A stretch of DNA of 38,689 nucleotides from Thermodesulfovibrionia bacterium (GTDB taxonomy: Bacteria; Nitrospirota; Thermodesulfovibrionia; Thermodesulfovibrionales; SM23-35). Below, in pieces: positions 6,625 to 30,817 of this stretch (its first letter is position 1; every line of letters begins with the position of its first letter). Where the stretch lies: the NCBI GenBank assembly GCA_041478735.1, contig JBGOWS010000001.1, positions 1-38,689 of the forward strand, in the 5' to 3' direction. Below the pieces are notes generated by a model. The model was not told where the DNA came from. It was given only the letters and a program-made list of their open reading frames with translations, and ran no database searches. The position numbers and the translations under genes were made by a program.

Positions 6625-6626
6625 AC

Positions 6627-7742: not shown

Positions 7743-7762
7743 TACTTTTAGAAAGGAATGAT

Positions 7763-8773
7763 ATGAGTGAGCTTACATATATGAAATTGCCGGATCTTAA
7801 GGGAGCAAAAATACTGATAACCGGAGGGCTTGGCTTTATCGGGAGCAATCTTGCACATGCTTGCCTACAGCAGGGGGCAGAAGTATCGATTTTCGATTGC
7901 CTGGACCCCCATTCAGGGGGAAAGATTTATAATGTAATGGATATAAAGGACTCAGTTACTCTTTGCTTCCATGACATACTAAACTTCGATCAGGTGTCTC
8001 ATCATGTAAGCAGAAACGATATTATTATTAATTGTGCTGCTTCGACATCTCATCCTTTTTCAATGAGGGAGCCCTGGATCGATCTTGATGTTAACAGCAG
8101 AGGAGTTATCAACATATTGGAGGCCATTCGTAGATTCAATCGCAGGGGAAAGTTCATTCATATCGGCACGAGTACTCAGTTGGGAAGGTTACAATATCAA
8201 CCTGCTGACGAGAACCATCCCGAGTTCCCGACTGATATCTATTCAGCTAATAAGAGTGTTTCAGAAAAATATGTGCTTATATATGCGAATGCTTTTCAAT
8301 TGAGGGCGTCTGTTGTAAGATTGTCAAATGTCTTTGGCCCGAGAGCCAGCATACATAGTCCCGAATTTACTTTCAATAATTATTTCATCGGCCTTGCCCT
8401 GCAGGGAAAGGACATAACCGTATTCGGAGACGGGGCCCAAAAAAGAAACGCAATCTATGTCGACGATGTGGTCTCAGCTATTCTGATGGCGGCAAAGAGC
8501 GACTTGGTCGACGGTGAGACCCTCTTTGCAGTTAGCGATTACCATTATAGCGTTGCTAAGATTGCTGAGGAAACGGTTCGACATATGGGTTCAGGTAACG
8601 TCAAGTTCATAGAGTGGCCAAAAAGCAGAAAATCCATTGAAGTTGGCGACGCGATTCTAAGCAATAAGAAAGTCAGGAAGCTGCTGAACTGGTCGCCCGA
8701 GCATGACTTGGAAGCAGGTCTTTTAAAGACAAAGGCATTCTATGAGACATGTCTTGATGAATATCTGAGGTGA
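7763..8773 (+). CDS. NAD-dependent sugar epimerase/dehydratase (extended SDR)
   Basis: GGLGFIGSNL Rossmann motif and YSANK (YxxxK) catalytic motif. Confidence 0.8.
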   Translation: MSELTYMKLPDLKGAKILITGGLGFIGSNLAHACLQQGAEVSIFDCLDPHSGGKIYNVMDIKDSVTLCFHDILNFDQVSHHVSRNDIIINCAASTSHPFSMREPWIDLDVNSRGVINILEAIRRFNRRGKFIHIGTSTQLGRLQYQPADENHPEFPTDIYSANKSVSEKYVLIYANAFQLRASVVRLSNVFGPRASIHSPEFTFNNYFIGLALQGKDITVFGDGAQKRNAIYVDDVVSAILMAAKSDLVDGETLFAVSDYHYSVAKIAEETVRHMGSGNVKFIEWPKSRKSIEVGDAILSNKKVRKLLNWSPEHDLEAGLLKTKAFYETCLDEYLR

Positions 8774-8777
8774 AGAA

Positions 8778-9725
8778 ATGAAAATATTGATTACCGGGGC
8801 GCTTGGACATATAGGATCACGGCTGCTTCGTGACATTCCGAAGCTTCAGCCATGCGTCGAGATTATCATGATAGACAATATGATGACTCAGCGATATTCA
8901 TCTCTTTTTGACCTTCCGGAAGGGGGCACATATCATTTCATTGAAGATGATATTTTGACAGCCGATATATGGGCAGTGATGAATGGAGTCAATGTGGTTA
9001 TTCACCTCGCAGCTGTAACTGATGCGGCCAATAGCTTCAGGAACAAGGAACAGGTTGAGCATGTAAATTATAATGCTACTGCGAGAGTTGCTGAGGCCTG
9101 TTGTACTGCGGGAATACCTATGATCCATATTTCGTCTACAAGCGTATATGGAACTCAAAAAGAACTTGTAGATGAGACCTGCTCGCATGACGAACTCCAA
9201 CCACAGAGCCCTTATGCGGAGACAAAGCTGAAGGAGGAAAATCTGCTGAGAAATCTTGGTTTGTCGAAAGGGCTCCGGTTTATCTCGTGCCGGTTCGGGA
9301 CAATTGCCGGTACCTCGACTGGCATGCGCTTCCATACTGCTGTCAACAAGTTTTGCTGGCAGGCAGTTATGGGGCAGCCGCTTACTGTCTGGAGAACTGC
9401 CATGCACCAAAAGCGGCCTTATCTTTCTCTTGATGATGCAGTGAGGGCATTGATGTTTATAATTGATAGAGAGCTCTTTGATAACAGAGTCTACAACGTG
9501 CTGACTGAGAACCTGACGGTGCACGATATAGTCGAGTCTATAAAGCAGAGGGCCCCTGAACTTTTGGTTGGTTTTGTCGATGCCCAGATTATGAATCAGT
9601 TATCCTATGAAGTATCGAATAAGCGATTTAAAGACAAAGGTTTTAATTTTACCGGCAGTATCGACAGATGTATCGCTGATACTATCAGATTGATTGGTAA
9701 AGCAGGAGGAAACCGTGTCAGATAA
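8778..9725 (+). CDS. NAD-dependent sugar epimerase/reductase (extended SDR)
   Basis: GALGHIGSRL Rossmann motif and YAETK (YxxxK). RBS GAGGTG upstream. Confidence 0.8.
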   Translation: MKILITGALGHIGSRLLRDIPKLQPCVEIIMIDNMMTQRYSSLFDLPEGGTYHFIEDDILTADIWAVMNGVNVVIHLAAVTDAANSFRNKEQVEHVNYNATARVAEACCTAGIPMIHISSTSVYGTQKELVDETCSHDELQPQSPYAETKLKEENLLRNLGLSKGLRFISCRFGTIAGTSTGMRFHTAVNKFCWQAVMGQPLTVWRTAMHQKRPYLSLDDAVRALMFIIDRELFDNRVYNVLTENLTVHDIVESIKQRAPELLVGFVDAQIMNQLSYEVSNKRFKDKGFNFTGSIDRCIADTIRLIGKAGGNRVR

Positions 9726-10464
9726 GAAAATGTATACCCGCGAAGAGTTTGAGAACTTGCGCAAAGAGTCTGCACTGGCTATGGACGGGGATCAATCCAT
9801 TAGGGAAGAAGCGCTTAAAGTGCTGGTAAAGGCAGATCAATACCGGTGGATCCATCAAACCACCTGGCTTGGTGAGCCAATCCTCAATCTCCCCCAAGAT
9901 ATGTTTGCGATTCAGGAAATTATTTTCAGGACCAGGCCGAAATTTATTATAGAAGTTGGAGTTGCATGGGGAGGTTCTCTGTTATTCTACTCCACGCTTA
10001 TGGAGGCGCTCGGCGGTGAAAGAATTGTCGGCGTAGACCTATACATCCCTGAGGATCTGAAAGCCAGGCTCCTTTCGCACGGGAAACTGTCGGAGAGGAT
10101 TACCTTGATAAACGGATCATCAGTTGAAGAGGATACGCTCAGCAGAATTCAATCCATCATCGGTAATTCGCGCGATGTCATGATAATGCTGGACTCCTAT
10201 CATACCCACCAACACGTTCTCATGGAACTTAGGATGTATTCACCTCTAATCGGTATAGGGCACTATCTGATTTGCGGGGATACCATCCTTGAAGATATTC
10301 CACAGCAGGTGCACCGCCCACGGCCATGGGGACCGGGCAATAACCCAAAAACAGCCCTCAATGCGTTTCTGAAGGAGTCGGATCGCTTTGTCGTTGACGA
10401 AAGCATAGGTACAAAATTATTGTTCACCTGTAACCCGGGCGGGTATCTTCGGTGCGTACGATGA
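9715..10464 (+). CDS. CmcI/cephalosporin-hydroxylase-family SAM methyltransferase (sugar O-methyltransferase type)
   Basis: WIHQTTWLGEPILNLPQDMFAIQEIIF...IIEVGVAWGGS is the CmcI-family signature. GTG at 9715 lies 6 nt after AGGAGG (9703-9708). The track start at 9694 (TTG) and the ATG at 9730 are alternatives. Confidence 0.75.
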   Translation: MSDKKMYTREEFENLRKESALAMDGDQSIREEALKVLVKADQYRWIHQTTWLGEPILNLPQDMFAIQEIIFRTRPKFIIEVGVAWGGSLLFYSTLMEALGGERIVGVDLYIPEDLKARLLSHGKLSERITLINGSSVEEDTLSRIQSIIGNSRDVMIMLDSYHTHQHVLMELRMYSPLIGIGHYLICGDTILEDIPQQVHRPRPWGPGNNPKTALNAFLKESDRFVVDESIGTKLLFTCNPGGYLRCVR

Positions 10465-13400
10465 ATAAAGCGCTGGTGAGCATCGGGATTCCTGTCTATA
10501 ATGATGAAACTTGGGTGAGCAAGACATTGAAATCTGTTATCAATCAGGATTATAATAATCTTGAGATAATAGTTGTAGATGATTTTTCCAACGATAAGAC
10601 CCGCGAAATATGTAAATCATTTCAAACCACAGATCACAGAATTATCTTCCATGAAAATCCTTTTACTATAGGTGCTATAGAAAACCATAAACTTGTTTTC
10701 AACTTAAGTCACGGTGAATATTTTATTTGGTGTAATGGTCACGACTATTTTGATCCATCTTACATCTCGAAATGTGTAGAATCTTTAGAACAGGATAAAA
10801 GCTTGCAGCTATGTTGCGGTAAAACCGATCTCATTAGCATGGACGGAGTAACTTTCAAAACGTTATTCCAATCACTTGATACCCGTGGAATGAGTGCTGT
10901 TGACCGCTTCCATGCAGTTTATTGGGCGTCAACAAAAAATGCATGTATCTTTTATGGTGTGTTCAGATCGGAGAGCATAAAAAATGCAAACCCTTTTCGT
11001 AAAACATTGGGTGGAGATTTAATCTTTCTTGCTGAAGTATCATTAAAAGGAAATTTCCTACAACGAGATGACATTACATTCTACCGTCAGCGAGTAAGAC
11101 CAGAACTTACTGTCGAACAGGCTACTCAACGCTGGATTGAGAATATTGTTCAACCAGAAGGTCATCGCCTTGAAGCTGTCACTCCTTGGCTAAACATGGC
11201 ATATGAGTATCTTAATATGATTGTTAATTTAAGAAGACCCGCCACTGAACAGGAAGTTCTATTATCGACAGCAATTGATCTAGTAAAGATAATATATGGC
11301 GATCGGATACAATCAGACATTGAGAAACTTATCTCTATCAATGTTGAGGAAATAACAGGTCCTTTTAATCGCAATACTTATCTGACAGAACTCATCCCCA
11401 ACTTAATCAAAGCCAAGTTTTTTTATCGTGATATTAGCAAATTAGACAATATGTTGCATAAATGTATTGGAATGACAGGACAAGTTGATTCATTGATGTC
11501 TGTACCTTATCGGCCGATGTCAATAGTGACAGACTTAACCAAAATGAAGTTACCAAAAATGGCAATTGAGCAATATAATAAATCTCAAGAGTATATAACA
11601 TCGGGAAACTTTAATGAAGCCATAAACGAACTGGAAGTACTCATTGACGGGTATCCCGATTTCGCCATCGCCTATAATGACCTTGGAGTTATTTATTACA
11701 ACAAGGGGGATAAGGAAAGGGCGCTGAAATATTACGAGAAGGCAGTGGCATTAAATCCAGAAAATATTAACTTCCAGAAAAACCTCGCCGATTTTTATTT
11801 TGTAGAATTGGGTCATACCGAAGATGCTATCAGGATTTACCTCAAGGTTCTGGCTACACATCCCGAGGATATTGAAGCATTGCTTACTATTGGTAATTTT
11901 TGTGTTACTGTGGAAAAGATCGAGCAGGCAAAAGTCTTTTTCAATAGAGTGCTTAAAATTAACCCAATAAATGCAGAAGCCATGAAAATCATTGATCTTC
12001 TAAACAAGCAACATAGGGCAATTACGCCTGCGCAGACTGATGCGACCACAAATGGCGTTGAATGCCCTATATGTGACGGAAGATTTCAGGCATTTTTACC
12101 CTTTGGAGTAAGGCCGAGACCCAACGCTTTGTGCCCTGTTTGCGACAGCTTAGAGCGCCACCGCCTGCTGTGGCTGTATCTCCAAATAAAAACGGACTTT
12201 TTAAAAGAAAATTTAAAGGTTCTTGACATCGCTCCGACAAGGGTTCTTTCACGAAAAATCGCAGAGCTGCCGAACATTGACTACATAAGCATTGATTTAA
12301 ATTCACCGTTGGCTATGCAATTTATGGATATAACATCACTAACTTTCCCCGACAATCATTTCGATTGCATATTCTGCTACCATGTTCTCGAACACATCCC
12401 TGACGACAACAAAGCGATTAGCGAATTGTTTCGCGTTCTGAAACCTTCAGGATGGGCAATTATACAAGTACCCGTTAATGAAGATATCGAGAAAACATTA
12501 GAGGACACCAAGGTTACCGACCCTAAAGAACGAGAGAAACTATATGGACAGAATGACCATGTCCGCCTTTATGGAAGGGACTTTAAAGAACGGCTTGAGA
12601 AGGGCAAGTTCTATGTCACTGTAGATGATTTTGTATCGACATTACCCCTGAATCAGATTAAAACTTACGCGCTCGATCCTAATGAAAACATCTATTTTTG
12701 CAGAAAGAAATCAAAGTCGCAAAATTTAAGCGTACCTGATATCAAAAGGAACAAAATAAAAGTTGTCTTTGCGGTTACCGAAACAGGAGAAATGAGCGCT
12801 GCGGGCGATTATTTCACGGCGATGGAACTCGGCCTTGCCTGTCGGGAACAATTCGGTTGGGATGTCGAATTGGTACCTACGGAAAGATGGTACGATGTTG
12901 CTGATGCTGATGTCCTTGTTGCCATGACCCACCGCTATAATCTCAATCGATTGGTCCCCTTGGCCACGAGTATCATAAAAATTTGCTGGATGCGGAATTG
13001 GTTTGACGGCTGGGCCGGGCAACCTTTCTTTCACCTTTGGGATATTTATCTCTGCTCTTCCCTAAAGGCACTTGACTATATTAAGGGGAAATACCATGTA
13101 AACCCGCATCTTTTGAGACTCGCGACAAACCCAAAAAGGTTCAATCCACTTGGACAGGAGCGAAAAATTGACTACTGTTTTACCGGAAACTATTGGAACG
13201 ATCCCAGGGATATTGAGAAGATAAACCCGGAAAAAATCGGTTTGAATTTCGCCCTGTTCGGTAAAAACTGGGAACAACATGCTCAATTCAAACAATATTA
13301 TAGAGGATTCATTCCATATTCTGATCTGCCGAGTATTTATAATCAGGCAAAGATACTGGTTGATGACGCCAATAGAGTGACAAAACAGTGGGGCTCCGTA

Positions 13401-16400
13401 AACAGTCGGGTTTTTGATGCTTTGGCCGCAGGTACGTTAGTAATAACTAATAGCATGGAGAGTTCCAAGGATGCTTTTCAGGGCAAGTTGCCGGTCTATA
13501 ACACACCCGCCGAATTACGGAAATTGCTTCATCTATTCACAGGTGATTCCCAAGCATACGAAAGCAAGGTCAATATACTCCGCAAAATGGTCATGGACTA
13601 TCACACGTATGAGGTCAGAGCTCTAGAGTTTGGGGAGATTCTATCAAATTATGGCAACATAAGGCAGGGTATTGACACTGGATTGAGCAAAAATAGATCT
13701 CTTAAGGCGATTCCCCGCATTTCCATTATTATCCCGGTTTTTAACAAACTTGACTTTACGAAGAAGTGTTTGTCGGCGCTGAAAGTAAACACCAATCCGG
13801 ACATTTATGAAATCATTGTTGTTGATAACGCGTCAACGGACGGCACTGCACGTTTTCTCGCGTCTCTTAACAGCCTATCAATAAAAATCATCACGAACGA
13901 AAAAAACGAGGGTTTTGCAAAGGCCTGCAATCAAGGGGCAAAAGCCGCATCAACTGACTACCTGCTCTTCCTCAACAACGACACTGAGCCGCAGCAGGGA
14001 TGGCTTGAACCGCTCTTGAATATTATCAGTCATGATGATTCGGTTGCTGCCGTTGGCAGCAAGTTGCTCTATCCCGATGGGACGATCCAGCACGGGGGCA
14101 TATTGATCGTCGATGACCGGAAAAACAACGATCCGCTGCTGGCGAGAAACAACCATGTAAACAAACCAGCAACCGCACCCGAAGCAAATGAGCCTGCCAC
14201 CTATCAGGCGCTGACCGCAGCTTGCCTCCTAATTCGCAAGGCCGCATTTCAAAAAGCAGGCGCCTTTGATGAAGAGTACTGGAACGGCTATGAGGATGTC
14301 GACTTGTGCTTCACGCTTCGGGAGCAGGGTGGAAAACTCGTCTATCAGCCGGAAAGCGTCGTGATCCACCATGAATCCAAGAGCGGTCCCGAACGCTTCA
14401 GCAAGGCAAGGGAGAACATCGCCCGCCTGCACAAAAAATGGCTGGGCAAAATCAAGCCGGATGCTGTTCTGAACAAAGACGGGAGCGTGGCAATGACCGA
14501 TGCAGGAACAATACAGCCGTACCGCGCTCTGGAGTGGGACAACCAGCCGCTCGTCACTGCGCCTGCAGCGATCAAGCCGAACATTACCTCCATCGTCATT
14601 CTCACCTTTAACCAGCTTAAGTATACAAAGGAGTGTGTCGAGAGCATCAGTAAACATACACCTGAGCCGCACGAGATCATCTTTGTGGATAATGGTTCAA
14701 CAGACGGGACTGTAAAATGGCTGAAAAAGCTTGTGGAGGAGAATCCTTCTTATCGGCGTATTGAGAACGGTACAAACCTTGGGTTTGCAAGAGGCTGTAA
14801 TCAGGGTATTACTGCGTCGAAGGGTGAGTATATACTGCTGCTTAACAATGATGTGGTTGTGACGGAAAACTGGCTTTCAGGCATGCTTGAATGTCTTAAC
14901 AGTGACCCCGGCATAGGCATTGTGGGGCCGATGACAAATAACATCAGCGGCACACAGAAGGACTCCAATGCCACATATAAGACCATTAAGGACATGCACA
15001 CCTATGCAAAGTCGTTCAGGGAAAAGAACCAGCATCGCAGGATACCATTGAGGAGGATCGTCGGCTTTTGCATGCTGTTTAGACGCTCGCTGGTAGAAAA
15101 AATCGGGTTACTGGATGACAGTTTTGGTACAGGCAATTTTGAGGATGACGATTATTGCCTGAGATCTTCATTGGCAGGATACAGGAATATTATTGCAGGG
15201 GATGTCTTTATTCATCATTACGGAAGCAGGAGTTTTATCGGTAACAGGATAGACTATGGTTCAGCAATGGCGGGCAACCGTAAGATATTTAATGAGAAAT
15301 GGAGCGGGATAAATTCTCAGAGCGAACTTGGGCAGAAGCTGGTTATTACAAGTGCGTTGGAGAATGCGACCGAACTGCATGAAAGGGGGATGACCGATAA
15401 GGCGGTGGAGAGACTTATCGAAGGCATAAAATATTCACCGGAAAACAAGGCGATCTATTATGCCCTTGCTATGATATTGATCGACGCTAAGCGGTATCAG
15501 GATGCATTTGATGCACTCAACTCCTTGCCGGAGGAAGCAAAAAATGATGCTAAGAGTTTGGAACTGATAGGTTACTGCAAGGAAGGCATTGCGCATTACG
15601 AAGAGGCAGAGGAGTATGCTGACAAAGCGCTTTCAATGAACTCTACCCGAGCCCCGGCTCTCAATCTTAGAGGGATATTGGCGTACAGACAGGGCGATAG
15701 AAAAACAGCAGAAGATCTCTTTAAAAGAGCGATTGCTTCTGATCCTGGATATGGCGAGCCATATACAAACCTTGGTGTTCTGAGCTGGGCTGAAGGAAAT
15801 AAGGATGAGGCTTTGAATATGCTTGAGAGGGGATTCATCCTGTCACCGGCTATCATGGATATAGCCACTACATACCATTCAGCAATTACCGGGATGAACG
15901 AATTCGGGAGGGCTGAGAGGGTATTCCATGAGGCCCAGGCGCTTTATCCATTGAGACGCAGGATTGCCTTTCTTCTTATCGATGTGCTGTTACAGCAAGG
16001 CAAAAATAAGGAAGCAATGCAGGAAATAGAAGAAGCGATGGTTTCATTCGGAATAGATGATGACCTTCTCTCCGCTGCCCTTGCGGTCAGGGATAAAGTC
16101 GGCTCTAAAGAGATAAATAAGACCTTAAAAAACAGAGGAACCCTTTCCTTATGCATGATCGTGAAGAATGAGGAACAACATATCGCGAAATGCCTTATGA
16201 GCGTGAAGCCTGTTGTCGACGAGATGATAGTGGCTGATACAGGTTCGACGGACAGGACGAAGGAGATAGCAAAGGCGTTAGGCGCAAAGGTATATGATTT
16301 TGAATGGACAGGGGATTTCTCTGAGGCGAGGAACTATTCACTGTCAAAGGCTTCAGGTAAGTGGATTCTTGTGCTCGATGCCGATGAGGTGATCTCTTTA

Positions 16401-19400
16401 TTGGATCATGAGAAGATAAGGACTATCGCAGATAACAATGAAGATAAGAAGATGGCCCGCCAGTTTACTACAAGGAACTATGTTGATTTTGTGGGAATAC
16501 ATAGCTGGAGAAAAAACGACGATTTCTATAATGAACAGGCTGGTGTTGGGTGGATAGCTAGCAGAAAGGTAAGATTTTTCCCGCGCAATGACAAAATATA
16601 TTTTGTAAACCCTGTTCACGAAATTCTGGAGCCTTCTATAGAAAAACTTAGCATGGAGATAGTGGAATGTGATGTTCCCATACACCATTATGGCAAATTG
16701 GATAAAGACAAGGGTAAAAAGAAGGGTAGTATATATTTAGAACTGGGAGAGAAAAAGCTTGCCGAATCTGGTGGTGGAGATCCAAAGGCGCTCTGGGAAC
16801 TGGGAATTCAGAATTTTGTGAACGGAAATTATCAGGATGCCTTGGAAAGATTCCGTGAGATCATAGCCCTCGAGCCAGAACTCCTGCAGGCCGGTACTGA
16901 ATTGTCAAAGGTCCATATGCAAGTCGGTATTTGTTACATGTGTCTCCATAACTATTCAGATGCATTAGCTTCACTTGGGAAGTCTATTGAGCTGGCTCCT
17001 GACCTGAAGGAGGCGAACCTTAATTATGCTGTAACGCTTATCTTTCTTGGACGGGCAGCAGAGGCAATTATTTCGATCGAAACATTTTGCAGAATGGACC
17101 CGAACCACCTTCATGGGAAATACATACTTGCCATTGCACAATTCTGTGCAGGGAAGAAGGAAGAAGGCTTTTCGACAGTTAGTTCACTCAACGGCAGTAT
17201 GATGCCATTCATGCAATTTGTGGCGCTTTTTGTGAAAGATCTTAAGTTGTCAGGCCAATCAGACTATATTCCGGCAATCCTCAGGCCACTTGAGGAACTT
17301 AACAGCATCACTCCTGAACTGTCTGTGATGCTCAAAGAATGTTGCCGGGAGGAGAAATCTAAAGGAGTTATTGACGAAAAATCTATTAATGTCTTTGAAA
17401 AACCTTGTGAAGATACGAACCAGGATAAGCACAGAATCGATTCAGATGAAGGGATTAAAACTTTTACACAGAAAGAAGCAAAGACAGGTCTGACTTCTAT
17501 TGTGATATTGACCTTTAACCAACTCAAATACACGCAGGAATGCGTAGATAGTATCAGGAGATATACCCCTGAGATACATGAGATCATCTTTGTGGATAAT
17601 GGTTCAACTGATAGAACCGTGAAGTGGCTGAGGGAGCTCATCAATGAAAACCCGAACTATAAACTCATCGAGAATGAAAAGGATCTTGGTTTTGCGAAAG
17701 GATGCAATCAGGGGATAAGCGCATCATCAGGAGAATATATTCTCCTGATGAATAATGAAGTTGTTGTTACAGAAGGCTGGCTTTCAGGAATGCTCGAATG
17801 CCTGAACAGTGCACTGGATATCGGCATCGTAGGCCCCATGACAAATAATATCAGCGGTCCCCAGAAGGTTGCGGATGCTGGTTATAAGGCAATGCACAAG
17901 ATGCATGAATATGCCAGGCTTTTCAGGGAAAGGCACAGGCACAGGAGAATATCGCTCAAAAGAATAGCCAGGTTCTGCATGCTTTTCAGGCGTGAACTGG
18001 TTAAAAAGATCGGGATGCTTGACGAGAGTTTCGGATCTATAAATTTTGAGGACGATGATTTCTGTCTTAGGGCAATTATTGAAGGATATAGGAACCTTGT
18101 TGCAGGTGATGTTTTTATTCACTATCACGGCAGTAGGAGCTTTATCGGCAACAGGATTGACTATAGTGCAGCCATGTCTGGCAACAGGAAGATTTTCAAT
18201 GAGAAATGGAACGGGATTGACCGAAACAGCGCGTTGGGAAAAGCGCTGGTGATGGTTACCGCGCTTGAACAGGCAGATGAACTGAAACAGCAAGGCCTTG
18301 TTAATGAAGCTGTAAAGGTTTTGATCGACTCTATCAGCTTCGCTCCGGACGACAAGAGGAGCTACCTGAATCTTGCGGAACTGCTTATTGAAGACAAAAG
18401 GTTCACAGACGCGCTTGAGGCGCTTCAGAACCTACCTGTTGGATCAGAAGTGGATGCGCGGGTAATGGAATTGACAGGTTATTGCAAGGAAGGTATGAAG
18501 TTGTATGATGAAGCGATGGCTTGTGCTGAAAATGCCCTTGCAATAAATCCACACTCTGCATCAGCGCTAAACCTTAGGGGAGTGCTGGCAATCAGAAAGG
18601 GGGATAAAAGCACTGCAGAAGATTTCTTTAAGAAGGCTATAGATTCTGACCCTGGATATGGCGAGCCATATACAAACCTTGGGGTCATGAAGTGGGTCGA
18701 AGGGAAAAGGGAAAAAGGTTTCGAACTGCTCGAAAGGGGGTTCATGCTAGCTCCGTCCATTGCGGATATTGTTACAACATACCACTCTGCTGTTAGTGAA
18801 ATGAAAGCATTTGAGAGGGCTGAACGCGCCTTCAGGGAGGCAAAGGAACTTTATCCACAGAATAAGAGAATTATCTTTCTGTTAATAGATATTTTCTTGC
18901 AGCAGGACAGATTTGAGAATGCTATGCAGGAAATTGAACATGCAATGATAGTCTTTGGAATAGACGACGGCATGCTTTCTGCATCTCTTGATATCAGAGG
19001 TAAGATGGGCCCCAAGGAAATAAAAGAGACCATAAAGAAAAAAGGTACACTTTCTTTGTCAATGATCGTAAAAAACGAAGAGCAGCATATAGCGAAATGT
19101 CTTATGAGTGTAAAGCCTGTGGTGGACGAGATAATCGTGGTTGATACCGGTTCAACAGACAGGACAAAGGAAATTGCACTGGTTTTTGGTGCAAAGGTAT
19201 ATGATTTTGAATGGGCTGAGGATTTTTCTGCAGCGAGGAACTACGCTCTCGAAAAGGCTTCCGGACAGTGGATTCTCTCGCTCGATGCAGATGAGGTTAT
19301 ATCGCCCTCGGATTATGCTTCACTGTCCGCTCTTATAAAAAAGGATCATTCCAGGCCAACGGCTTATTCCTTCATAACCAGAAACTATTCAAATGAGATA

Positions 19401-20273
19401 GTTTCGCAGGGATGGACACCAAATGACGGAAGATATCCAAATGAAGAAGCTGCAGCTGGATGGTTTCCTAGTGAAAAGGTGAGACTTTTCTTTAATGATA
19501 AACGCATCAGGTTCGAAAATCCAGTGCATGAGTTTGTTGAGGGATCAGTGCAAAGGGCCGGAATGGCGATCAAGCCTTGCAGTATCCCAGTGCACCATTA
19601 CGGAAGGCTTAATATTGAAAAAGTGGCTGCCAAAGGTGAGGCTTACTATATTCTCGGCAAGAAAAAACTGGTGGAAAAGGGGAATGATTTAAAAGCTCTC
19701 TTCGAACTTGGGGTGCAGGCTGGGGAACTGAAGAAATACAAAGAAGCTGCCGAGTTATTTCAAAAAGTGGTTGATATTGACCCAAAGTATCCCTATGCCT
19801 TATTCAATCTGGGATTTAATTGTATGGAACTGGGCAGATATAATGATGCCTTTGCATTTACTAAGAAGGCCTATGAATTTGATCCAAAACACAAAGAAAC
19901 AGCAATAAACCTTGCCTATTGCGAACTTGTGGTCGGGGATATCAAGAATGCTACTGCTCTTCTTGAAGTCACTGTCAGGAGAGTATCAGAATATCCTCCC
20001 GCAATGGGCACTCTTGCGGCTGCATATTATATTAATGGGAAAAAAGAAGAAGCGTTAACCATACTCGAGAAACTTAACAGGAAAGGGTTCGATTGTTCTG
20101 TCTGTCTTTACGATATAGCGAGTGGACTTTTCTCCACAGGCAGGCTTAAACAGGCCATGGATGTGCTTGAGGCAGCTGTTCAGAGCAAGAACATCCACAA
20201 AGACACAGGTGATCTTCTTCAGAAATGTTACAGGGCAATAATTAATGGGGAGCGAAACCCTGATTCAAAATAA
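10461..20273 (+). CDS. Giant (~3270 aa) multidomain glycosyltransferase/methyltransferase/TPR protein
   Basis: Approximate domain order by motif:
- GT2 at 10470-11150 (IPVYND...VVDDFSND)
- TPR at 11590-12010
- Zn-ribbon + SAM MTase at 12060-12700 (CPICDG...CPVCDS...VLDIAP...VLEH)
- CgeB/GT1-like at 12760-13650
- GT2 at 13719-14440
- then [GT2-TPR-GT2-TPR] twice, at 14586-17492 and 17493-20273
No obvious signal peptide or TM segment. ATG 10461 overlaps the upstream stop (ATGA). Confidence 0.85.
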   Translation: MNKALVSIGIPVYNDETWVSKTLKSVINQDYNNLEIIVVDDFSNDKTREICKSFQTTDHRIIFHENPFTIGAIENHKLVFNLSHGEYFIWCNGHDYFDPSYISKCVESLEQDKSLQLCCGKTDLISMDGVTFKTLFQSLDTRGMSAVDRFHAVYWASTKNACIFYGVFRSESIKNANPFRKTLGGDLIFLAEVSLKGNFLQRDDITFYRQRVRPELTVEQATQRWIENIVQPEGHRLEAVTPWLNMAYEYLNMIVNLRRPATEQEVLLSTAIDLVKIIYGDRIQSDIEKLISINVEEITGPFNRNTYLTELIPNLIKAKFFYRDISKLDNMLHKCIGMTGQVDSLMSVPYRPMSIVTDLTKMKLPKMAIEQYNKSQEYITSGNFNEAINELEVLIDGYPDFAIAYNDLGVIYYNKGDKERALKYYEKAVALNPENINFQKNLADFYFVELGHTEDAIRIYLKVLATHPEDIEALLTIGNFCVTVEKIEQAKVFFNRVLKINPINAEAMKIIDLLNKQHRAITPAQTDATTNGVECPICDGRFQAFLPFGVRPRPNALCPVCDSLERHRLLWLYLQIKTDFLKENLKVLDIAPTRVLSRKIAELPNIDYISIDLNSPLAMQFMDITSLTFPDNHFDCIFCYHVLEHIPDDNKAISELFRVLKPSGWAIIQVPVNEDIEKTLEDTKVTDPKEREKLYGQNDHVRLYGRDFKERLEKGKFYVTVDDFVSTLPLNQIKTYALDPNENIYFCRKKSKSQNLSVPDIKRNKIKVVFAVTETGEMSAAGDYFTAMELGLACREQFGWDVELVPTERWYDVADADVLVAMTHRYNLNRLVPLATSIIKICWMRNWFDGWAGQPFFHLWDIYLCSSLKALDYIKGKYHVNPHLLRLATNPKRFNPLGQERKIDYCFTGNYWNDPRDIEKINPEKIGLNFALFGKNWEQHAQFKQYYRGFIPYSDLPSIYNQAKILVDDANRVTKQWGSVNSRVFDALAAGTLVITNSMESSKDAFQGKLPVYNTPAELRKLLHLFTGDSQAYESKVNILRKMVMDYHTYEVRALEFGEILSNYGNIRQGIDTGLSKNRSLKAIPRISIIIPVFNKLDFTKKCLSALKVNTNPDIYEIIVVDNASTDGTARFLASLNSLSIKIITNEKNEGFAKACNQGAKAASTDYLLFLNNDTEPQQGWLEPLLNIISHDDSVAAVGSKLLYPDGTIQHGGILIVDDRKNNDPLLARNNHVNKPATAPEANEPATYQALTAACLLIRKAAFQKAGAFDEEYWNGYEDVDLCFTLREQGGKLVYQPESVVIHHESKSGPERFSKARENIARLHKKWLGKIKPDAVLNKDGSVAMTDAGTIQPYRALEWDNQPLVTAPAAIKPNITSIVILTFNQLKYTKECVESISKHTPEPHEIIFVDNGSTDGTVKWLKKLVEENPSYRRIENGTNLGFARGCNQGITASKGEYILLLNNDVVVTENWLSGMLECLNSDPGIGIVGPMTNNISGTQKDSNATYKTIKDMHTYAKSFREKNQHRRIPLRRIVGFCMLFRRSLVEKIGLLDDSFGTGNFEDDDYCLRSSLAGYRNIIAGDVFIHHYGSRSFIGNRIDYGSAMAGNRKIFNEKWSGINSQSELGQKLVITSALENATELHERGMTDKAVERLIEGIKYSPENKAIYYALAMILIDAKRYQDAFDALNSLPEEAKNDAKSLELIGYCKEGIAHYEEAEEYADKALSMNSTRAPALNLRGILAYRQGDRKTAEDLFKRAIASDPGYGEPYTNLGVLSWAEGNKDEALNMLERGFILSPAIMDIATTYHSAITGMNEFGRAERVFHEAQALYPLRRRIAFLLIDVLLQQGKNKEAMQEIEEAMVSFGIDDDLLSAALAVRDKVGSKEINKTLKNRGTLSLCMIVKNEEQHIAKCLMSVKPVVDEMIVADTGSTDRTKEIAKALGAKVYDFEWTGDFSEARNYSLSKASGKWILVLDADEVISLLDHEKIRTIADNNEDKKMARQFTTRNYVDFVGIHSWRKNDDFYNEQAGVGWIASRKVRFFPRNDKIYFVNPVHEILEPSIEKLSMEIVECDVPIHHYGKLDKDKGKKKGSIYLELGEKKLAESGGGDPKALWELGIQNFVNGNYQDALERFREIIALEPELLQAGTELSKVHMQVGICYMCLHNYSDALASLGKSIELAPDLKEANLNYAVTLIFLGRAAEAIISIETFCRMDPNHLHGKYILAIAQFCAGKKEEGFSTVSSLNGSMMPFMQFVALFVKDLKLSGQSDYIPAILRPLEELNSITPELSVMLKECCREEKSKGVIDEKSINVFEKPCEDTNQDKHRIDSDEGIKTFTQKEAKTGLTSIVILTFNQLKYTQECVDSIRRYTPEIHEIIFVDNGSTDRTVKWLRELINENPNYKLIENEKDLGFAKGCNQGISASSGEYILLMNNEVVVTEGWLSGMLECLNSALDIGIVGPMTNNISGPQKVADAGYKAMHKMHEYARLFRERHRHRRISLKRIARFCMLFRRELVKKIGMLDESFGSINFEDDDFCLRAIIEGYRNLVAGDVFIHYHGSRSFIGNRIDYSAAMSGNRKIFNEKWNGIDRNSALGKALVMVTALEQADELKQQGLVNEAVKVLIDSISFAPDDKRSYLNLAELLIEDKRFTDALEALQNLPVGSEVDARVMELTGYCKEGMKLYDEAMACAENALAINPHSASALNLRGVLAIRKGDKSTAEDFFKKAIDSDPGYGEPYTNLGVMKWVEGKREKGFELLERGFMLAPSIADIVTTYHSAVSEMKAFERAERAFREAKELYPQNKRIIFLLIDIFLQQDRFENAMQEIEHAMIVFGIDDGMLSASLDIRGKMGPKEIKETIKKKGTLSLSMIVKNEEQHIAKCLMSVKPVVDEIIVVDTGSTDRTKEIALVFGAKVYDFEWAEDFSAARNYALEKASGQWILSLDADEVISPSDYASLSALIKKDHSRPTAYSFITRNYSNEIVSQGWTPNDGRYPNEEAAAGWFPSEKVRLFFNDKRIRFENPVHEFVEGSVQRAGMAIKPCSIPVHHYGRLNIEKVAAKGEAYYILGKKKLVEKGNDLKALFELGVQAGELKKYKEAAELFQKVVDIDPKYPYALFNLGFNCMELGRYNDAFAFTKKAYEFDPKHKETAINLAYCELVVGDIKNATALLEVTVRRVSEYPPAMGTLAAAYYINGKKEEALTILEKLNRKGFDCSVCLYDIASGLFSTGRLKQAMDVLEAAVQSKNIHKDTGDLLQKCYRAIINGERNPDSK
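14586..17492 (+). repeat. Copy A of the intragenic tandem duplication (GT2-TPR-GT2-TPR module)
   Basis: Starts TSIVILTFNQLKYTKECVESI. It is collinear with copy B at an offset of exactly 2907 nt (969 codons) at the anchor. Identical patches reach ~30 nt (e.g. GAGATCATCTTTGTGGATAATGGTTCAAC, CCTGGATATGGCGAGCCATATACAAACCTTGG). Confidence 0.9.
17493..20273 (+). repeat. Copy B of the intragenic tandem duplication
   Basis: Starts TSIVILTFNQLKYTQECVDSI. The same domain order continues to the stop codon. The copies have diverged at both the nucleotide and protein level. Confidence 0.9.
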
Positions 20274-20293: not shown

Positions 20294-20450
20294 TGCAAAT
20301 ATAGAAAAATAGTAATAGTTCACCCCCACCCCTACCCTCCCCCATCAAGGGGGAGGGCAATTATTATTAGATTTGCTGATAAATATTCCCCCTCCACTGG
20401 CGGGAGGGGGTTAGGGGGAGGGGTGCTGAACTATTACGAAAAATATTTGC
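20294..20450. repeat. G/C-rich palindromic REP-like element: two inverted units between convergent genes
   Basis: GCAAATAT...GTAATAGTTCACCCCCACCCCTACCCTCCCCCATCAAGGGGGAGGG plus an inverted second unit (CCCCCTCCACTGGCGGGAGGGGGTTAGGGGGAGGGGTGCTGAACTATTAC...ATATTTGC). Contains local hairpins CCCTCCCCC/GGGGGAGGG and CCCCCTCC/GGGAGGGGG. Confidence 0.8.
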
Positions 20451-20478: not shown

Positions 20479-20859
20479 CTAGTCTGCAATCGAGCTTCTT
20501 AAACCTGCTGCAAGGTTCAGGTTGATATTAATGATAATGTTGAGTTTTCCCGGATCAGGATAAGCCATAACATTAATTATCCGCTTGTCGATAAAAAGAC
20601 TTAAGCTGAGTATATCATCCCGCAGTTTTTTGGGTAGCGGATTATCCGGTTTTGCGAGTTCTGACTGGAATATGCTCCAGATCTGCTGATTGAATCTGAG
20701 GGCTTCGTTAAGCTTTGCGTCACGGTCTTTAGCATCCCATTTGCCCTGGCAATCTTTCAGCAGATGAGCTGCTTTTGTGAGGACCATGGCCTCCAGTTCA
20801 CGGCCTGAAATCGTGGTCTTCTGGACATCCCTATATGCCTGTAGTTGATTTGCGTACAC
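20479..20859 (-). CDS. flaF: Flagellin synthesis regulator FlaF
   Basis: AYRDVQKTTISGRELEAMVLTKAAHLL...LRFNQQIWSIFQSELAKPDNPLPKKLRDDILSLSLFIDKR matches the FlaF family pattern. Sits next to flbT and the flagellin gene. Confidence 0.8.
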   Translation of the reverse strand: MYANQLQAYRDVQKTTISGRELEAMVLTKAAHLLKDCQGKWDAKDRDAKLNEALRFNQQIWSIFQSELAKPDNPLPKKLRDDILSLSLFIDKRIINVMAYPDPGKLNIIININLNLAAGLRSSIAD

Positions 20860-21238
20860 TATTAATTACCTCCTGTTCATAGTCTATCAGTTTTCTGGTC
20901 AGTTTAAGTGCCTGATAATATCTGCTCTGCAATATATGGCCGCTGATCTCGTGGAGCAGCGGTTTTGTGCTGGGTGCAGCCTCGACAATATCCTTTACCA
21001 GTTCCCAGTAAGTCTTGTGATGATCTGCCAGGTTTTTTTCATTAATATACATCAACTGTATCACGAGATAAATCCTTTTGCATGGGGAATCGGCATCCTT
21101 TAAGGTCATTATGTCCTTTTCACGAAGGATCGGGACATTGTTTTCAACCACCAGATTGGCCTTGGCAGCGCCGTTCACAACTACAGCGCCGCCGATGATC
21201 AGTTTTTCATGTGGTTTGAGCGTTATTTTTAGTGCCAT
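20831..21238 (-). CDS. flbT: Flagellar biosynthesis repressor FlbT
   Basis: MALKITLKPHEKLIIGGAVVVNG...NVPILREKDIM matches the FlbT N-terminal signature. Overlaps the flaF start by 29 nt. Confidence 0.8.
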   Translation of the reverse strand: MALKITLKPHEKLIIGGAVVVNGAAKANLVVENNVPILREKDIMTLKDADSPCKRIYLVIQLMYINEKNLADHHKTYWELVKDIVEAAPSTKPLLHEISGHILQSRYYQALKLTRKLIDYEQEVINSVRKSTTGI

Positions 21239-21244: not shown

Positions 21245-21730
21245 TCAGATCTTTATGTTAAGGATCGATCCCGGCTGCGCTTTATCCGTGAATTCGGTAT
21301 TGTCCTGCTTCAGTTTATCCCTCAACCCGAAAAGTTTATCAAGCGCCAGGGATATATCTTTGTCAGTTGAGTCCTCAGATAGCATCTTCCCTGAGAACAT
21401 CTTCTTCAGATTGGCATCAATTGCCGACTTCTCAACTTCTTCCTGTATCCCCTTGATTTTCTTGATAAGGTCAAGTCTCTGGTAAGTGCCCGGGGGGAAG
21501 AAAGGGGGATAATGTGTCAGGATTATGTCAAGTTCTTCCTGCAGGTAATTTACCGAGATGGTTATCCCTTGTGCCTGCATCTGCGGAGTACTGATCTCAT
21601 TCTCTGACATACCGGTACTGACCTGACTGGCGGAAAAGCCGGACCTGATCTCAACATTCGAATTGCTTTTATCCACAAGGCGACTCGCATTCTGCGTGAC
21701 CTGATTTGTATAAATACTATTAATATTCAT
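21245..21730 (-). CDS. Hypothetical 161-aa protein in the flagellin operon
   Basis: Clean ORF with RBS AGAGGG, lying between flagellin and flbT. I recognise no family; it does not look like FlaG, FliS or FliW by eye. Confidence 0.55.
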   Translation of the reverse strand: MNINSIYTNQVTQNASRLVDKSNSNVEIRSGFSASQVSTGMSENEISTPQMQAQGITISVNYLQEELDIILTHYPPFFPPGTYQRLDLIKKIKGIQEEVEKSAIDANLKKMFSGKMLSEDSTDKDISLALDKLFGLRDKLKQDNTEFTDKAQPGSILNIKI

Positions 21731-21796: not shown

Positions 21797-22969
21797 TTAT
21801 CCGAACAACCTCAGGACCGACTGTGCTGCCTGTGATGACAGACTCAGAGCTGTTGTGCTTAGAGCCTGACGTGTCTGGAGCATCAGCATATTTGCCCCTT
21901 CTTCGTTCATGTCTGCGAGCGTTAGTTTGTCCGCGCCCTCTGTAAGTGTCGCAACTAAGTTAGCAGTGAAATTGTCCTGTATTTCTATTATACTAAGGTT
22001 GGTGGCCAGCTTTGAGGCCTCTGATCTCAATAATGGGATTGCTGTTTCCAGTTTGCCGAGGTCCGTGCTGATTTCCGTATTCACACTCCATGCCCAGTTT
22101 TGGCCCGATGTAGTATCTGTGGCTGTCGAGCTCAGTGATAAATCACTTGCTGTTGCGCTGAATCCTTTAACTGATATTGCGCTGTTTTCAAAGGATACAT
22201 TCAGGTCTTCGTTCATCAAGAGATTTACGCCTTTGTATCCGGAAGAATTGGCAACAGCATCGATCTGATGCATGAGGCTGTTATACTGCTCTGACAGCGC
22301 CCTTCTCTCTGAAAAGACTGAATAGCCGTCAGTATCAGTTAGAACAGTTGCCTGCGCGCCGCTTTCATCATAAAAGCTGGTGTAATTCCCTTGCGTAATA
22401 GCTGTGTTGCTTGATTTTGCCTCGAGAACAAGTGTTGTCCCTGTAGCAGTTGCAACCATATCAGTAACCTCTGCTTGAGCGTTAATTAATGCTGCAAGGT
22501 TCGAAAGAGTAGTTTCAATGTCATTGGAATCAGCAACAAACTGTGTCGTAGGAGATGTAATAGCACCGGTTGTTGCAACAGCAGTATAAAGAGTGCCGCC
22601 TACGGTAACTGTGTTGGTGGATGATATAGACGTAAACTGAACCTTTATTTGGTTCTTGGCTGCTCCCTTTGCAGCTTGTGACAGAGCTTTTGCTGATTCA
22701 ATCAGGTCTGTGATGGATGAAATGCCTTTATCTGCAGCCTTGATGGTCTGGACCGACTCACCCATGCCTTCCTTGAGGGATGTGATATCATTTGCACGGC
22801 TCAGATGCGCGCGGGATGCAAAATAAGCAATCGGGTTATCAAGAGCAGAGTTGACCTTTTTGCCGGTTGCAAGGCGTCCCTGCGTTTTGTTTAAAAGATC
22901 AGATGTCTGCTGAAGATTTAATAGATTGGCCCGCATGCCAGTGGTTAAGGTAATATTATTGATAGCCAT
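21797..22969 (-). CDS. Flagellin
   Basis: Conserved N-terminus MAINNITLTTGMRANLLNLQQTSDLLNKTQGRLATGKKVNSALDNP and C-terminus ANMLMLQTRQALSTTALSLSSQAAQSVLRLFG. The central domain is Ser/Thr-rich. RBS AGGAG. Confidence 0.9.
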   Translation of the reverse strand: MAINNITLTTGMRANLLNLQQTSDLLNKTQGRLATGKKVNSALDNPIAYFASRAHLSRANDITSLKEGMGESVQTIKAADKGISSITDLIESAKALSQAAKGAAKNQIKVQFTSISSTNTVTVGGTLYTAVATTGAITSPTTQFVADSNDIETTLSNLAALINAQAEVTDMVATATGTTLVLEAKSSNTAITQGNYTSFYDESGAQATVLTDTDGYSVFSERRALSEQYNSLMHQIDAVANSSGYKGVNLLMNEDLNVSFENSAISVKGFSATASDLSLSSTATDTTSGQNWAWSVNTEISTDLGKLETAIPLLRSEASKLATNLSIIEIQDNFTANLVATLTEGADKLTLADMNEEGANMLMLQTRQALSTTALSLSSQAAQSVLRLFG

Positions 22970-23148: not shown

Positions 23149-23175
23149 ATATCGGACATTTTTCTTAAAACTTTA
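23149..23175 (-). promoter_or_regulatory. Sigma-28 (FliA) promoter for flagellin
   Basis: The minus strand reads TAAAGTTT-N11-TCCGATAT against the consensus TAAAGTTT-N11-GCCGATAA. Confidence 0.7.
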
Positions 23176-23440: not shown

Positions 23441-23467
23441 TAAAGTTTTTTTGAAATATTCCGATAA
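23441..23467 (+). promoter_or_regulatory. Sigma-28 (FliA) promoter for the small-ORF / c-di-GMP / motAB operon
   Basis: TAAAGTTT-N11-TCCGATAA, 15 of 16 consensus positions. It is divergent from the flagellin promoter. Confidence 0.7.
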
Positions 23468-28114: not shown

Positions 28115-28115
28115 T

Positions 28116-30811: not shown

Positions 30812-30817
30812 TAATTA

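Follow-up and report, generated by a model that had tools for sequence, protein, structure and literature searches.

A stretch of 38,689 nucleotides from a Thermodesulfovibrionia bacterium (contig JBGOWS010000001.1, assembly GCA_041478735.1; hereafter the window) was analysed around a single giant gene. The gene occupies positions 10461-20273 on the plus strand and was delimited from the open reading frame (ORF) list, its translation and Pfam matches. It encodes a 3270-residue protein composed of glycosyltransferase (GT), methyltransferase and tetratricopeptide repeat (TPR) domains, which is treated here as a candidate cytoplasmic enzyme for the O-glycosylation of flagellin. Eight tightly packed, co-directional sugar genes precede it (2877-10464, plus strand). 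A flagellin unit with flbT and flaF converges on it from the minus strand. An initial annotation, made from the sequence alone, had placed this unit about 200 bp away; 205 bp were measured from the stop codon of the giant gene to that of flaF, and a gene for a 161-residue protein was found to lie in the unit as well.

In the six-frame ORF list the giant frame was open from GTG 10452 or ATG 10461 to position 20273 on the plus strand. Translation from ATG 10461 gave 3270 residues with zero internal stops, and neither a stop nor a frame change occurred across the 9.8 kb, as had been described in the initial annotation. The translational coupling to the sugar cassette noted there was also seen, the ATG of the giant gene sharing the tetranucleotide ATGA with the TGA of the preceding CmcI-type methyltransferase gene. 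The protein had been described as lacking a signal peptide and transmembrane segments. No signal-like N-terminus was found in it, and its maximum Kyte-Doolittle mean over 19 residues was 1.41, corresponding to no hydrophobic segment.

An ORF of this length could be an artefact of chimeric assembly, or of separate genes joined through sequencing errors. Chimeric contigs are possible in metagenome-assembled genomes (MAGs), and the G+C content at third codon positions (GC3) ranges from 0.32 to 0.60 among the domains. Against this, a contig of 30,496 bp from JGI metagenome 3300052989 (L086) encodes a 3270-residue protein that is identical to the giant protein at 3269 of 3270 positions. Over 28 kb, from window position 2095 to 30273, the contig is 99.965% identical to the window, with 10 single-nucleotide polymorphisms and no gaps; three of the substitutions lie within the giant ORF. 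As this separately assembled contig contains the full-length ORF, the giant ORF is not an assembly join, and the mis-assembly that the initial annotation had allowed for was not borne out. The internally duplicated modules described below are only 55-72% identical at the protein level and are therefore too diverged for assembly collapse. More than 100 homologues of 1800-4637 residues are spread over numerous independently made assemblies, and some of the contigs that carry them are 0.5-2.6 Mb long. Together with the absence of stop codons and frame changes over 9.8 kb, these observations exclude an artefact for practical purposes. The left end of the window carries a DDE transposase gene (PF01609; 149-1810, plus strand); the second contig starts just past it, at window position 2095, as would be expected if assembly had broken off at a repeated insertion sequence element.

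Pfam was scanned on ten overlapping 520-residue pieces of the giant protein. Thirteen segments were obtained, in the order GT2-1, TPR-1, methyltransferase, CgeB-like GT-B, GT2-2 and then twice a block of sugar-elongating (E-type) GT2, TPR, GmaR/SunS-like (G-type) GT2 and TPR. The numbers reached by reading the translation, namely six GT2 domains, one CgeB/GT1-like domain, one S-adenosylmethionine (SAM) methyltransferase and five TPR arrays, were returned identically by Pfam. The GT2 model (Glycos_transf_2, PF00535) was matched in six separate regions (residues 7-118, 1088-1313, 1377-1591, 1896-1993, 2346-2518 and 2867-2980) with 68-205 bits against a gathering cut-off of 23.3.

All segments lie on the plus strand. 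GT2 domain 1 (10461-11540; residues 1-360) has a GHD motif and is followed by TPR array 1 (11568-11975; residues 370-505). The class I SAM methyltransferase domain (12021-12740; residues 521-760; PF08241, 2.5e-14, with Methyltransf_11 at residues 618-668) is preceded by a CxxC...CxxC pair at residues 535-562. The CgeB-like, GT-B-type domain (12741-13700; residues 761-1080) was recognised by Glyco_trans_1_2 (PF13524, 2.4e-19, residues 924-1056) and gave no NCBIfam or PDB sequence match. GT2 domain 2 (13722-14399; residues 1088-1313) has an LNND motif and the highest GC3 of the ORF (0.60); its best PDB matches were chondroitin synthase and the polypeptide N-acetylgalactosaminyltransferases (ppGalNAc-T). 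The first core module, module A, opens with the E-type GT2 domain 3 (14589-15233; residues 1377-1591), again with an LNND motif, and continues with TPR array 2 (15363-16082; residues 1635-1874), the GmaR/SunS-like GT2 domain 4 (16131-16745; residues 1891-2095; motifs DTGSTD, DADE and HHYG) and TPR array 3 (16782-17165; residues 2108-2235). The second contains the E-type GT2 domain 5 (17481-18230; residues 2341-2590; NNE motif), TPR array 4 (18258-18941; residues 2600-2827), the second GmaR/SunS-like domain, GT2 domain 6 (19041-19670; residues 2861-3070), and TPR array 5 (19692-20090; residues 3078-3210).

The two modules are a tandem duplication of about 950 residues. Self-BLAST of the whole protein returned the identity match alone, and the duplication was recovered by domain-versus-domain BLAST, in which GT2-3 and GT2-5 were 72% identical, TPR-2 and TPR-4 55%, GT2-4 and GT2-6 58% and TPR-3 and TPR-5 31%. 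The E-type GT2 domains resemble sugar-elongating enzymes (chondroitin polymerase, GalT1, EpsD, rhamnosyltransferases, MftF). The best matches of GT2 domains 2, 3 and 5 include the chondroitin polymerase K4CP, heparosan synthase and exopolysaccharide (EPS)-type GT2 enzymes. The E-type metal-site motif was NND in 74 of 82 sequences, as in GT2-3; the NNE of GT2-5 was found in 2 of the 82. GC3 was lowest in GT2-1 (0.32) and highest in GT2-2, a spread which suggests that the N-terminal domains were accreted from different sources. No curated NCBIfam name could be assigned to any catalytic domain of the giant protein, and neither MAF_flag10 nor the TagF-like Glyphos_transf domain (PF04464) was found in it by Pfam. 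A sub-threshold Pfam match to FlbT (24 bits) at residues 1811-1891 was rejected: six FlbT proteins of related loci were made into a profile, which found nothing in this region, and the match was treated as TPR noise.

A link to a characterised system was provided by the G-type domains. GT2-4 (residues 1891-2080) matched the GT domain of GmaR from Listeria monocytogenes (PDB 22ao_A) with an E value of 8e-29 in phmmer, and SunS with 1e-11. A manual count gave 48 identities among the first 86 aligned residues of GT2-4 and GmaR. The best NCBIfam model for the G-type domains was the SunS peptide S-glycosyltransferase family, below its cut-off. In an alignment of 20 family members (66% identity per column) the motifs DTGS.D, D-x-D-E, TRNY and HH.G were invariant, and both copies in the giant protein retain all of them. 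An AlphaFold2 model of the GmaR-like domain, generated from the 20 members, was GT-A-like, with a predicted local distance difference test (pLDDT) score of 91.6 and a predicted template-modelling score (pTM) of 0.88; its top Foldseek matches in the PDB were SunS/ThuS (TMq 0.71-0.76). Domain modelling and inspection of DxD motifs had been suggested in the initial annotation, and for the GmaR-like domains the outcome of both agrees with a GT-A fold in which these motifs are intact. The 930-residue core module was modelled with pLDDT 87.7 and pTM 0.77. Foldseek found no solved structure covering the whole of this model (TMq <= 0.27); parts of it matched only SunS/ThuS and TPR scaffolds such as OGT, SPINDLY and Ctr9. 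GT2-4 and GT2-6 are, by sequence, homologues of GmaR and of the SunS/ThuS peptide glycosyltransferases.

In GmaR an N-terminal GT domain of about 180 residues places N-acetylglucosamine (GlcNAc) on flagellin and is followed by TPRs proposed to recognise flagellin (PMC9638930). The same arrangement was found in the giant protein, in which a TPR array lies directly C-terminal to each GmaR-like domain (residues 2108-2235 and 3078-3210). GmaR doubles as an anti-repressor (PMC9638930). The giant protein might accordingly be read as a regulator or scaffold that sequesters flagellin, FlaF/FlbT or a repressor and couples flagellin synthesis to assembly, with glycosyl transfer secondary. Such a role would fit a gene that adjoins those of the flagellin translational regulators FlaF and FlbT, and a protein in which two GT2 domains have atypical metal-site residues. 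However, the C-terminal linker/anti-repressor part of GmaR was absent from the PDB sequence matches at E <= 1e-3: a query of residues 1891-2340 matched the 204-residue GmaR GT chain and generic TPR proteins only, MogR itself not being searched for. All catalytic and invariant residues are kept in the GmaR-like domains, the weak internal FlbT match was not reproduced, and translational coupling to a dedicated sugar operon makes little sense for a non-catalytic scaffold. A primarily regulatory function was judged very unlikely.

Relatives were sought by a word-indexed search of 5.8 billion proteins. In addition to the self match, at least 119 further proteins of 1841-4637 residues were obtained, containing many GT2 and TPR Pfam domains and often adding methyltransferase, radical SAM/B12-binding, sulfotransferase, GT1/GT4, GT9 or FkbM domains. 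Few of them are named; those that are come from Desulfobacterales, Syntrophales, Nitrospinales and Geotalea, and among the matches listed only the 3835-residue protein of Geotalea sp. SG265 (P0040) is named for a strain that is not a MAG. The domains of the giant protein were mapped by phmmer onto the first 70 of these relatives. A GmaR-like domain was located near the C-terminus in 67 of the 70, mostly as E-type GT2, TPR, GmaR-like GT2 and TPR, and the N-terminal portions varied freely, with extra GT2, GT1/GT4, methyltransferase, radical SAM or sulfotransferase domains. The window protein carries this core twice, alongside the convergent flaF-flbT-flagellin synteny; two GmaR-like domains were also found in six others of the 70.

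Among 1.84 billion cluster representatives, 7269 proteins matched a profile of the GmaR-like domain at E <= 1e-30. The best 150 of these included 58 proteins of at least 1800 residues and seven of at least 3000, with a maximum of 4437. In two matches, P0134 (2742 residues, 1175 bits) and P0136 (4061 residues), the profile aligned in 6-8 separate stretches, indicating several domain copies and module multiplication beyond that of the window protein. A scan of GTDB with one genome per species gave 596 relatives of the domain. The closest 20, at 48-65% identity, were all from MAGs and fell into two groups, one of Desulfobacteraceae, Desulfobacterales, Desulfatiglandales, Geobacteraceae, Syntrophales and Smithella and the other of Nitrospiraceae, Nitrospirota and Thermodesulfovibrionales. 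More distant relatives (35-48%) were from Latescibacterota, Ignavibacteria, Paenibacillus, Clostridium, Caldanaerobacter and Woesearchaeota.

On this sequence evidence the giant protein is not a one-off but a member of a family with sizes of 1800-4637 residues, most of whose members come from MAGs of Desulfobacterota and Nitrospirota. The C-terminal E-type GT2-TPR-GmaR-like GT2-TPR unit appears to be the conserved engine of the family, tandem-duplicated here, and we infer that the N-terminal domains may be interchangeable add-ons that diversify the glycan. The initial annotation had known of no described flagellin-modifying enzyme with so many fused catalytic domains. In the full-text literature, where coverage of subscription journals is incomplete, neither giant fused GT/TPR proteins of flagellar loci nor the glycosylation of flagellin in members of Desulfobacterota or Nitrospirota was found described; the publications retrieved concern FlmG, GmaR, Maf and GT2-TPR predictions in Clostridium. 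The giant enzymes apparently form a large, undescribed family.

The genomic context of the relatives was then compared. Seven loci were fetched by exact protein look-up (P0006, P0022, P0013, P0026, P0044, P0066 and P0019), and in all seven the giant gene was convergent on FlaF, FlbT, often a small gene of no assigned function, and one to three flagellin genes. In an eighth locus (P0002), which has no DNA, the last gene is a small one on the minus strand at the place of FlaF. Hidden Markov models for FlaF, FlbT and the N- and C-terminal domains of flagellin were built from the homologue loci and run on six-frame ORFs of the GTDB loci. Among the 20 closest loci, the match was adjoined by FlaF and/or FlbT together with flagellin in 12; fifteen of the 20 extend for 2.5 kb or more downstream, and all 12 are among them. 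The sequence of L016, one of the twelve, stops short of the flagellin position, and L023, another, has no FlaF match. Five of the eight other close loci have less than 2.4 kb after the ORF. Among 60 more distant loci with a GmaR-like domain, 27 had a flagellin-N match within 10 kb. Co-occurrence with flagellin genes, which the initial annotation had put forward for checking, was thus found in 7/7 fetched and 12/15 informative GTDB loci.

ORFs holding the GmaR-like domain in the GTDB loci ranged from 491 to 2714 residues. Unfused forms of 491-930 residues also adjoin FlaF, for instance a 680-residue ORF in L021 that abuts it directly. The presence of unfused and variably fused forms is the pattern expected from repeated fusion of separate pathway enzymes. 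The sugars appear to differ between members: in L003, L005 and L087 genes for NeuB and a CMP-transferase lie upstream, in contrast to the amino-, N-acetyl- and methyl-deoxyhexose cassette of the window.

FlaF and FlbT are known from Alphaproteobacteria. In the Desulfobacterota and Nitrospirota loci they are embedded in different regulatory neighbourhoods. In the Desulfobacterota-type loci L003, L004, L005, L087 and L088 the flagellin unit is followed by a small conserved gene, HDOD-HD, sigma-54 activators and a PAS histidine kinase; the flagellin neighbourhood of the window instead contains response regulators, HD-GYP, PilZ and MotAB.

A different function compatible with the domain content would be that of a soluble multi-domain polysaccharide polymerase for a capsule, a teichoic-acid-like polymer or a sheath, with the TPRs serving oligomerisation and the proximity to flagellar genes accidental. 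TagF-like capsule polymerases do combine GT-A and GT-B domains with an oligomerising TPR (PMC5974469), and the best matches of GT2-2, GT2-3 and GT2-5 to K4CP, heparosan synthase and EPS-type GT2 enzymes point the same way. The giant protein nevertheless has no TagF-like/Glyphos_transf domain (one relative, P0044, carries Glyphos_transf as an add-on). No gene for an ATP-binding cassette (ABC) transporter, Wzx/Wzy, an initiating phosphoglycosyltransferase or other export component was found in the window or in the seven fetched loci; the window was also without a flippase or polymerase gene. The initial annotation had held that consistent linkage of homologues to capsule or O-antigen export genes would speak against a flagellar role, and no such genes were seen in the homologue or GTDB loci inspected. 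Adjacency to flaF-flbT-flagellin is kept across Desulfobacterota and Nitrospirota, and the core domain is homologous to protein- and peptide-modifying GT2 enzymes. A polysaccharide polymerase is unlikely on these grounds.

The distribution of the domain raises the question of its acceptor. Relatives at 40-46% identity occur in MAGs of Woesearchaeota, Nanoarchaeota and Methanosarcinales (L032, L033, L035-L037, L040, L042 and L072). As these archaea have no bacterial flagellin, the target in them must be something else. The window protein could by analogy be a cytoplasmic protein glycosyltransferase with other or broader targets, such as hook-associated proteins, pilins, S-layer proteins or regulatory proteins, flagellin being at most one substrate. 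This would accord with the occurrence of the same GT2 class in non-flagellar contexts, with the small peptides on which SunS and ThuS act, and with five TPR arrays of different sequence types that could bind different partners. The observed linkage, however, is specific to flagellin, FlaF and FlbT and does not extend to other flagellar or pilus genes, and the nearest characterised homologue modifies flagellin. A broader or different target range was considered improbable.

The giant protein is best explained as a dedicated cytoplasmic flagellin O-glycosylation enzyme, or 'megasynthase', to which a probability of roughly 0.7 is assigned. This description, already advanced in the initial annotation as a multi-domain flagellin glycosylation enzyme, is supported by two independent lines, the conserved synteny (7/7 and 12/15 loci) and the homology to GmaR (E 8e-29). 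Precedents exist for the domain combination: in Caulobacter crescentus, likewise a FlaF user, flagellins are bound by the TPR domain of FlmG and are not modified without it (PMC7591256), and candidate flagellin glycosyltransferases of Clostridium have been picked out by their combination of GT2 and TPR (PMC13317340).

Several observations weigh against it. The sugar cassette has no nucleotidyltransferase, which leaves the donor pathway incomplete within the window. The Ser/Thr enrichment of the flagellin centre is modest. GT2-5 has NNE where NND is the rule (74/82), and GT2-1 has GHD where five of seven relatives have DHD; with these unusual metal-site residues, one or two of the domains may have reduced activity or serve a structural purpose only. 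The occurrence of the GmaR-like class in archaea without flagellin means that it is not flagellin-restricted. Three close loci (L013, L020 and L025) have room downstream and yet lack flaF and flagellin, and all family members come from MAGs or unstudied isolates.

If the protein does act as a flagellin glycosylation enzyme, the following course may be envisaged. The eight upstream genes would supply an unusual activated sugar. The TPR-flanked GmaR-like domains (residues 1891-2095 and 2861-3070) would bind flagellin that is unfolded or held by a chaperone and not yet exported, and would place a first sugar on Ser/Thr residues of its central variable region. The E-type GT2 domains, one of which is fixed ahead of each GmaR-like domain, GT2-1, GT2-2 and the CgeB-like GT-B domain could then lengthen this sugar into an oligosaccharide directly on the protein, with no lipid carrier involved in chain building. 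The SAM methyltransferase domain and the separate CmcI-type enzyme would decorate the glycan, after which FlaF and the export apparatus of the flagellum would receive the modified flagellin. We infer the initiating domain, the building of a chain rather than of several single sugars, the contact between TPRs and flagellin and the identity of the sugar, and any detailed order of events is held with much less confidence than the assignment as a dedicated flagellin glycosylation enzyme. A more elaborate version, regarded as doubtful, is a carrier-free, colinear glycan assembly line, in which the GmaR-like/TPR unit primes, the upstream GT, methyltransferase, radical SAM and sulfotransferase domains set the sequence and decoration of the oligosaccharide by their order and identity, and the TPRs pass flagellin between active sites. 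If true, this would be a glycan counterpart of the logic of non-ribosomal peptide synthetases and polyketide synthases, and module swapping and duplication would generate diversity of the flagellar surface.

Comparison with known systems places the protein nearest to GmaR. In both, a GT2 (GT-A) domain of about 180-200 residues, homologous to GT2-4 and GT2-6, directly precedes TPRs; GmaR acts on flagellin in the cytoplasm, and the same is predicted for the window protein. GmaR has 637 residues, one catalytic domain and a C-terminal anti-repressor domain and adds a single GlcNAc, whereas the window protein has 3270 residues, with two GmaR-like domains, five other GT domains and a methyltransferase. 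The window gene is linked to FlaF/FlbT, that of GmaR to MogR.

FlmG of Caulobacter crescentus, which the initial annotation had cited as a precedent, shares the modular combination of TPR and GT, the binding of flagellin by the TPR, the cytoplasmic location and a FlaF/FlbT host (PMC7591256). FlmG is a protein of 596 residues in which a TPR part at the N-terminus precedes a GT-B domain at the C-terminus; it transfers pseudaminic or legionaminic acid. In the window protein the flagellin-type catalytic domains are instead GT-A/GT2 domains placed before TPRs, and no NeuB or CMP-sugar genes are present in the window. The sole GT-B-like domain (residues 924-1056) is split from TPR-1 by the methyltransferase, so that the two-domain plan of FlmG does not recur, the comparison being one of layout. 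The GmaR type, with GT2 before TPR, is the closer analogue.

SunS and ThuS likewise have a GT2 domain followed by a helical repeat domain and modify polypeptides directly, and they are the best structural match of the GmaR-like domain; they are single-domain enzymes that place one sugar on a Cys of a small bacteriocin precursor and are not flagellar. Maf proteins (Campylobacter, Aeromonas, Shewanella, Clostridium) are dedicated flagellin O-glycosyltransferases of glycosylation islands, some of which use an acceptor-recognising TPR. They contain a MAF_flag10 domain and transfer nonulosonic acids, and neither that domain nor that pathway was found in the window. The TagF-like enzymes Cps1B, Cps3D, Cps7D and CslB also unite several independently acting catalytic domains and a TPR in one soluble polypeptide (PMC5974469). 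These polymerases differ in having two catalytic domains in about 900-1300 residues, a lipid-primed polymer, ABC-transporter export and an oligomerising TPR; the window has no TagF domain and no export genes, and its genomic partner is flagellin. OGT, in its eukaryotic and bacterial forms, and SPINDLY (SPY) deliver protein substrates to the GT through a long TPR superhelix. The TPR arrays of the giant protein match theirs, but a single sugar is added by these enzymes, whose catalytic domain is a GT41 GT-B domain.

To our knowledge, the known flagellin glycosyltransferases (Maf, FlmG, GmaR and the Fgt type) have a single catalytic domain and separately encoded partners, and hardly any work exists on how flagellin is modified in anaerobic Desulfobacterota and Nitrospirota, among which the present family is widespread. 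In this family a whole glycan-building pathway appears fused in one polypeptide of 2000-4600 residues around a GmaR-like core. The giant protein would be a GT2-TPR flagellin glycosyltransferase in modular, fused form, its core of GmaR/SunS type by descent and its predicted function that of GmaR, FlmG or Maf; it builds on a principle already known and does not introduce a new one. Should the function hold, the family would offer a natural system for cytoplasmic assembly of oligosaccharides on protein without a lipid carrier and, for glyco-engineering, soluble GT domains of modular design that come with their own TPRs for substrate docking. The E-type GT2-TPR-GmaR-like GT2-TPR unit beside flaF-flbT would serve as a genomic marker of flagellar glycan diversity in uncultured bacteria, and the FlaF/FlbT control module of flagellin would be tied to glycosylation genes in distant phyla.

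The eight upstream genes, all on the plus strand, were assigned from Pfam and NCBIfam matches. The first (2877-4097) encodes a C-methyltransferase of the nucleoside diphosphate (NDP)-hexose type, with a Zn-binding N-terminus (PF08421, 7.6e-16), a SAM methyltransferase and a C-terminal Methyltransf_14 domain (PF08484, 1e-53). It is followed by a DegT/DnrJ/EryC1 aminotransferase (4094-5194; PF01041, 1e-126), which is PseC/ArnB/WecE-like below the equivalog cut-offs. The third product (5191-5937) has an RmlC/FdtA-like cupin at residues 136-244 and a partial TIGR04325 methyltransferase-like N-terminus at residues 5-133, below cut-off, and may represent a fusion or what is left of one. The fourth (5938-6624) is a sugar N-acetyltransferase of the NeuD/PglB/VioB family with Hexapep repeats (TIGR03570, 188 bits against a cut-off of 160.8). 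A second DegT-family aminotransferase (6627-7742), LegC-like at sub-threshold level, precedes an NDP-sugar 4,6-dehydratase-like protein of the short-chain dehydrogenase/reductase (SDR) family (7763-8773; Epimerase and GDP_Man_Dehyd matches; RmlB/LegB-like, sub-threshold) and an SDR epimerase/reductase (8778-9725). The eighth (9694-10464; start at 9715 in the JGI annotation) is the CmcI/rhamnosyl O-methyltransferase-type gene (PF04989, 2e-62).

From these assignments the cassette probably makes a 6-deoxyhexose that is aminated, N-acetylated and methylated at C and/or O, not a nonulosonic acid. The earlier statement that Maf and nonulosonic-acid synthase genes are missing held: NeuB, CMP-transferase/CTP_transf_3 and Maf (MAF_flag10) had no Pfam or NCBIfam match in any window ORF of at least 100 residues. 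A weak sigma-54-like -24/-12 match (TGGCAG-N5-TTGCT, one mismatch) is located at 2757-2772 on the plus strand, about 105 bp 5' of the first sugar gene, and is a possible operon promoter. With 1.3 such matches expected in the window, it is not above chance, and its position alone is suggestive. No sigma-28 match with up to two mismatches was found for the operon of sugar and giant genes.

In the convergent unit, on the minus strand, the gene for FlaF (20479-20859; PF07309, 3.9e-33) is nearest to the giant gene, followed by those for FlbT (20831-21238; PF07378, 1.6e-44), the 161-residue conserved protein (21245-21730; no Pfam or NCBIfam match) and flagellin (21797-22969; 390 residues, Flagellin_N and Flagellin_C), the presumed acceptor substrate. 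The central domain of the flagellin had been called Ser/Thr-rich. Ser and Thr account for 28% of residues 101-300 against 19-21% at the ends, with a patch of 43% at residues 271-300; the enrichment stands but falls short of what that term implies. Two G+C-rich terminator-like hairpins, one per strand, lie between the convergent units at 20335-20410 (20335-20357 on the plus strand and 20410-20388 on the minus strand); the hairpin scan found three terminator-like sites against 0.4 expected. A sigma-28 (FliA)-type promoter of the flagellin unit was located at 23149-23175 on the minus strand, with two mismatches to TAAAGTTT-N11-GCCGATAA, 0.02 sigma-28 matches being expected in the window by chance.

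The 161-residue protein has positional homologues in L015 (Nitrospirae, 50% identity, E 3e-48), L019, L022, L001 and L007, and in L087 its place is taken by a 225-residue protein of no assigned function. It is, judged from position and similarity, a conserved, unnamed member of the flaF-flbT-flagellin unit. The closest relatives of FlbT and of the 161-residue protein are in Nitrospirota loci, and the CysK encoded in the window is 82-83% identical to Thermodesulfovibrionales MAG proteins; by these similarities the source is probably a Nitrospirota bacterium of that order.

The 5' leader of the flagellin gene contains a perfect tandem duplication of 30 nucleotides (2.1 copies, 23057-23118), 90-150 nucleotides before the ATG at 22969. 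Each unit reads AAGGAGGTGGCAAAGAATAAGGATATGGTA on the mRNA strand and includes a Shine-Dalgarno-like AGGAGG. The repeat may be a binding or decoy site for translational control of the FlbT/FlaF or CsrA type. A second, divergent sigma-28 promoter with one mismatch to TAAAGTTT-N11-GCCGATAA was found at 23441-23467 on the plus strand; it faces an operon at 23779-29743 with genes for a response regulator, HD-GYP, PilZ, a histidine kinase, MotA and MotB.

Rfam, tRNA and tandem-repeat scans of the window returned nothing belonging to the giant gene. Further downstream, the region 30052-33139 begins with the C-terminal tip of a Mg-chelatase/ComM-like protein (30052-30420) and continues for about 2.7 kb without an ORF of more than 110 residues; no Pfam, Rfam or tRNA match was obtained in these 2.7 kb. 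At 33-35 kb of the window the G+C content drops to 0.33-0.36.

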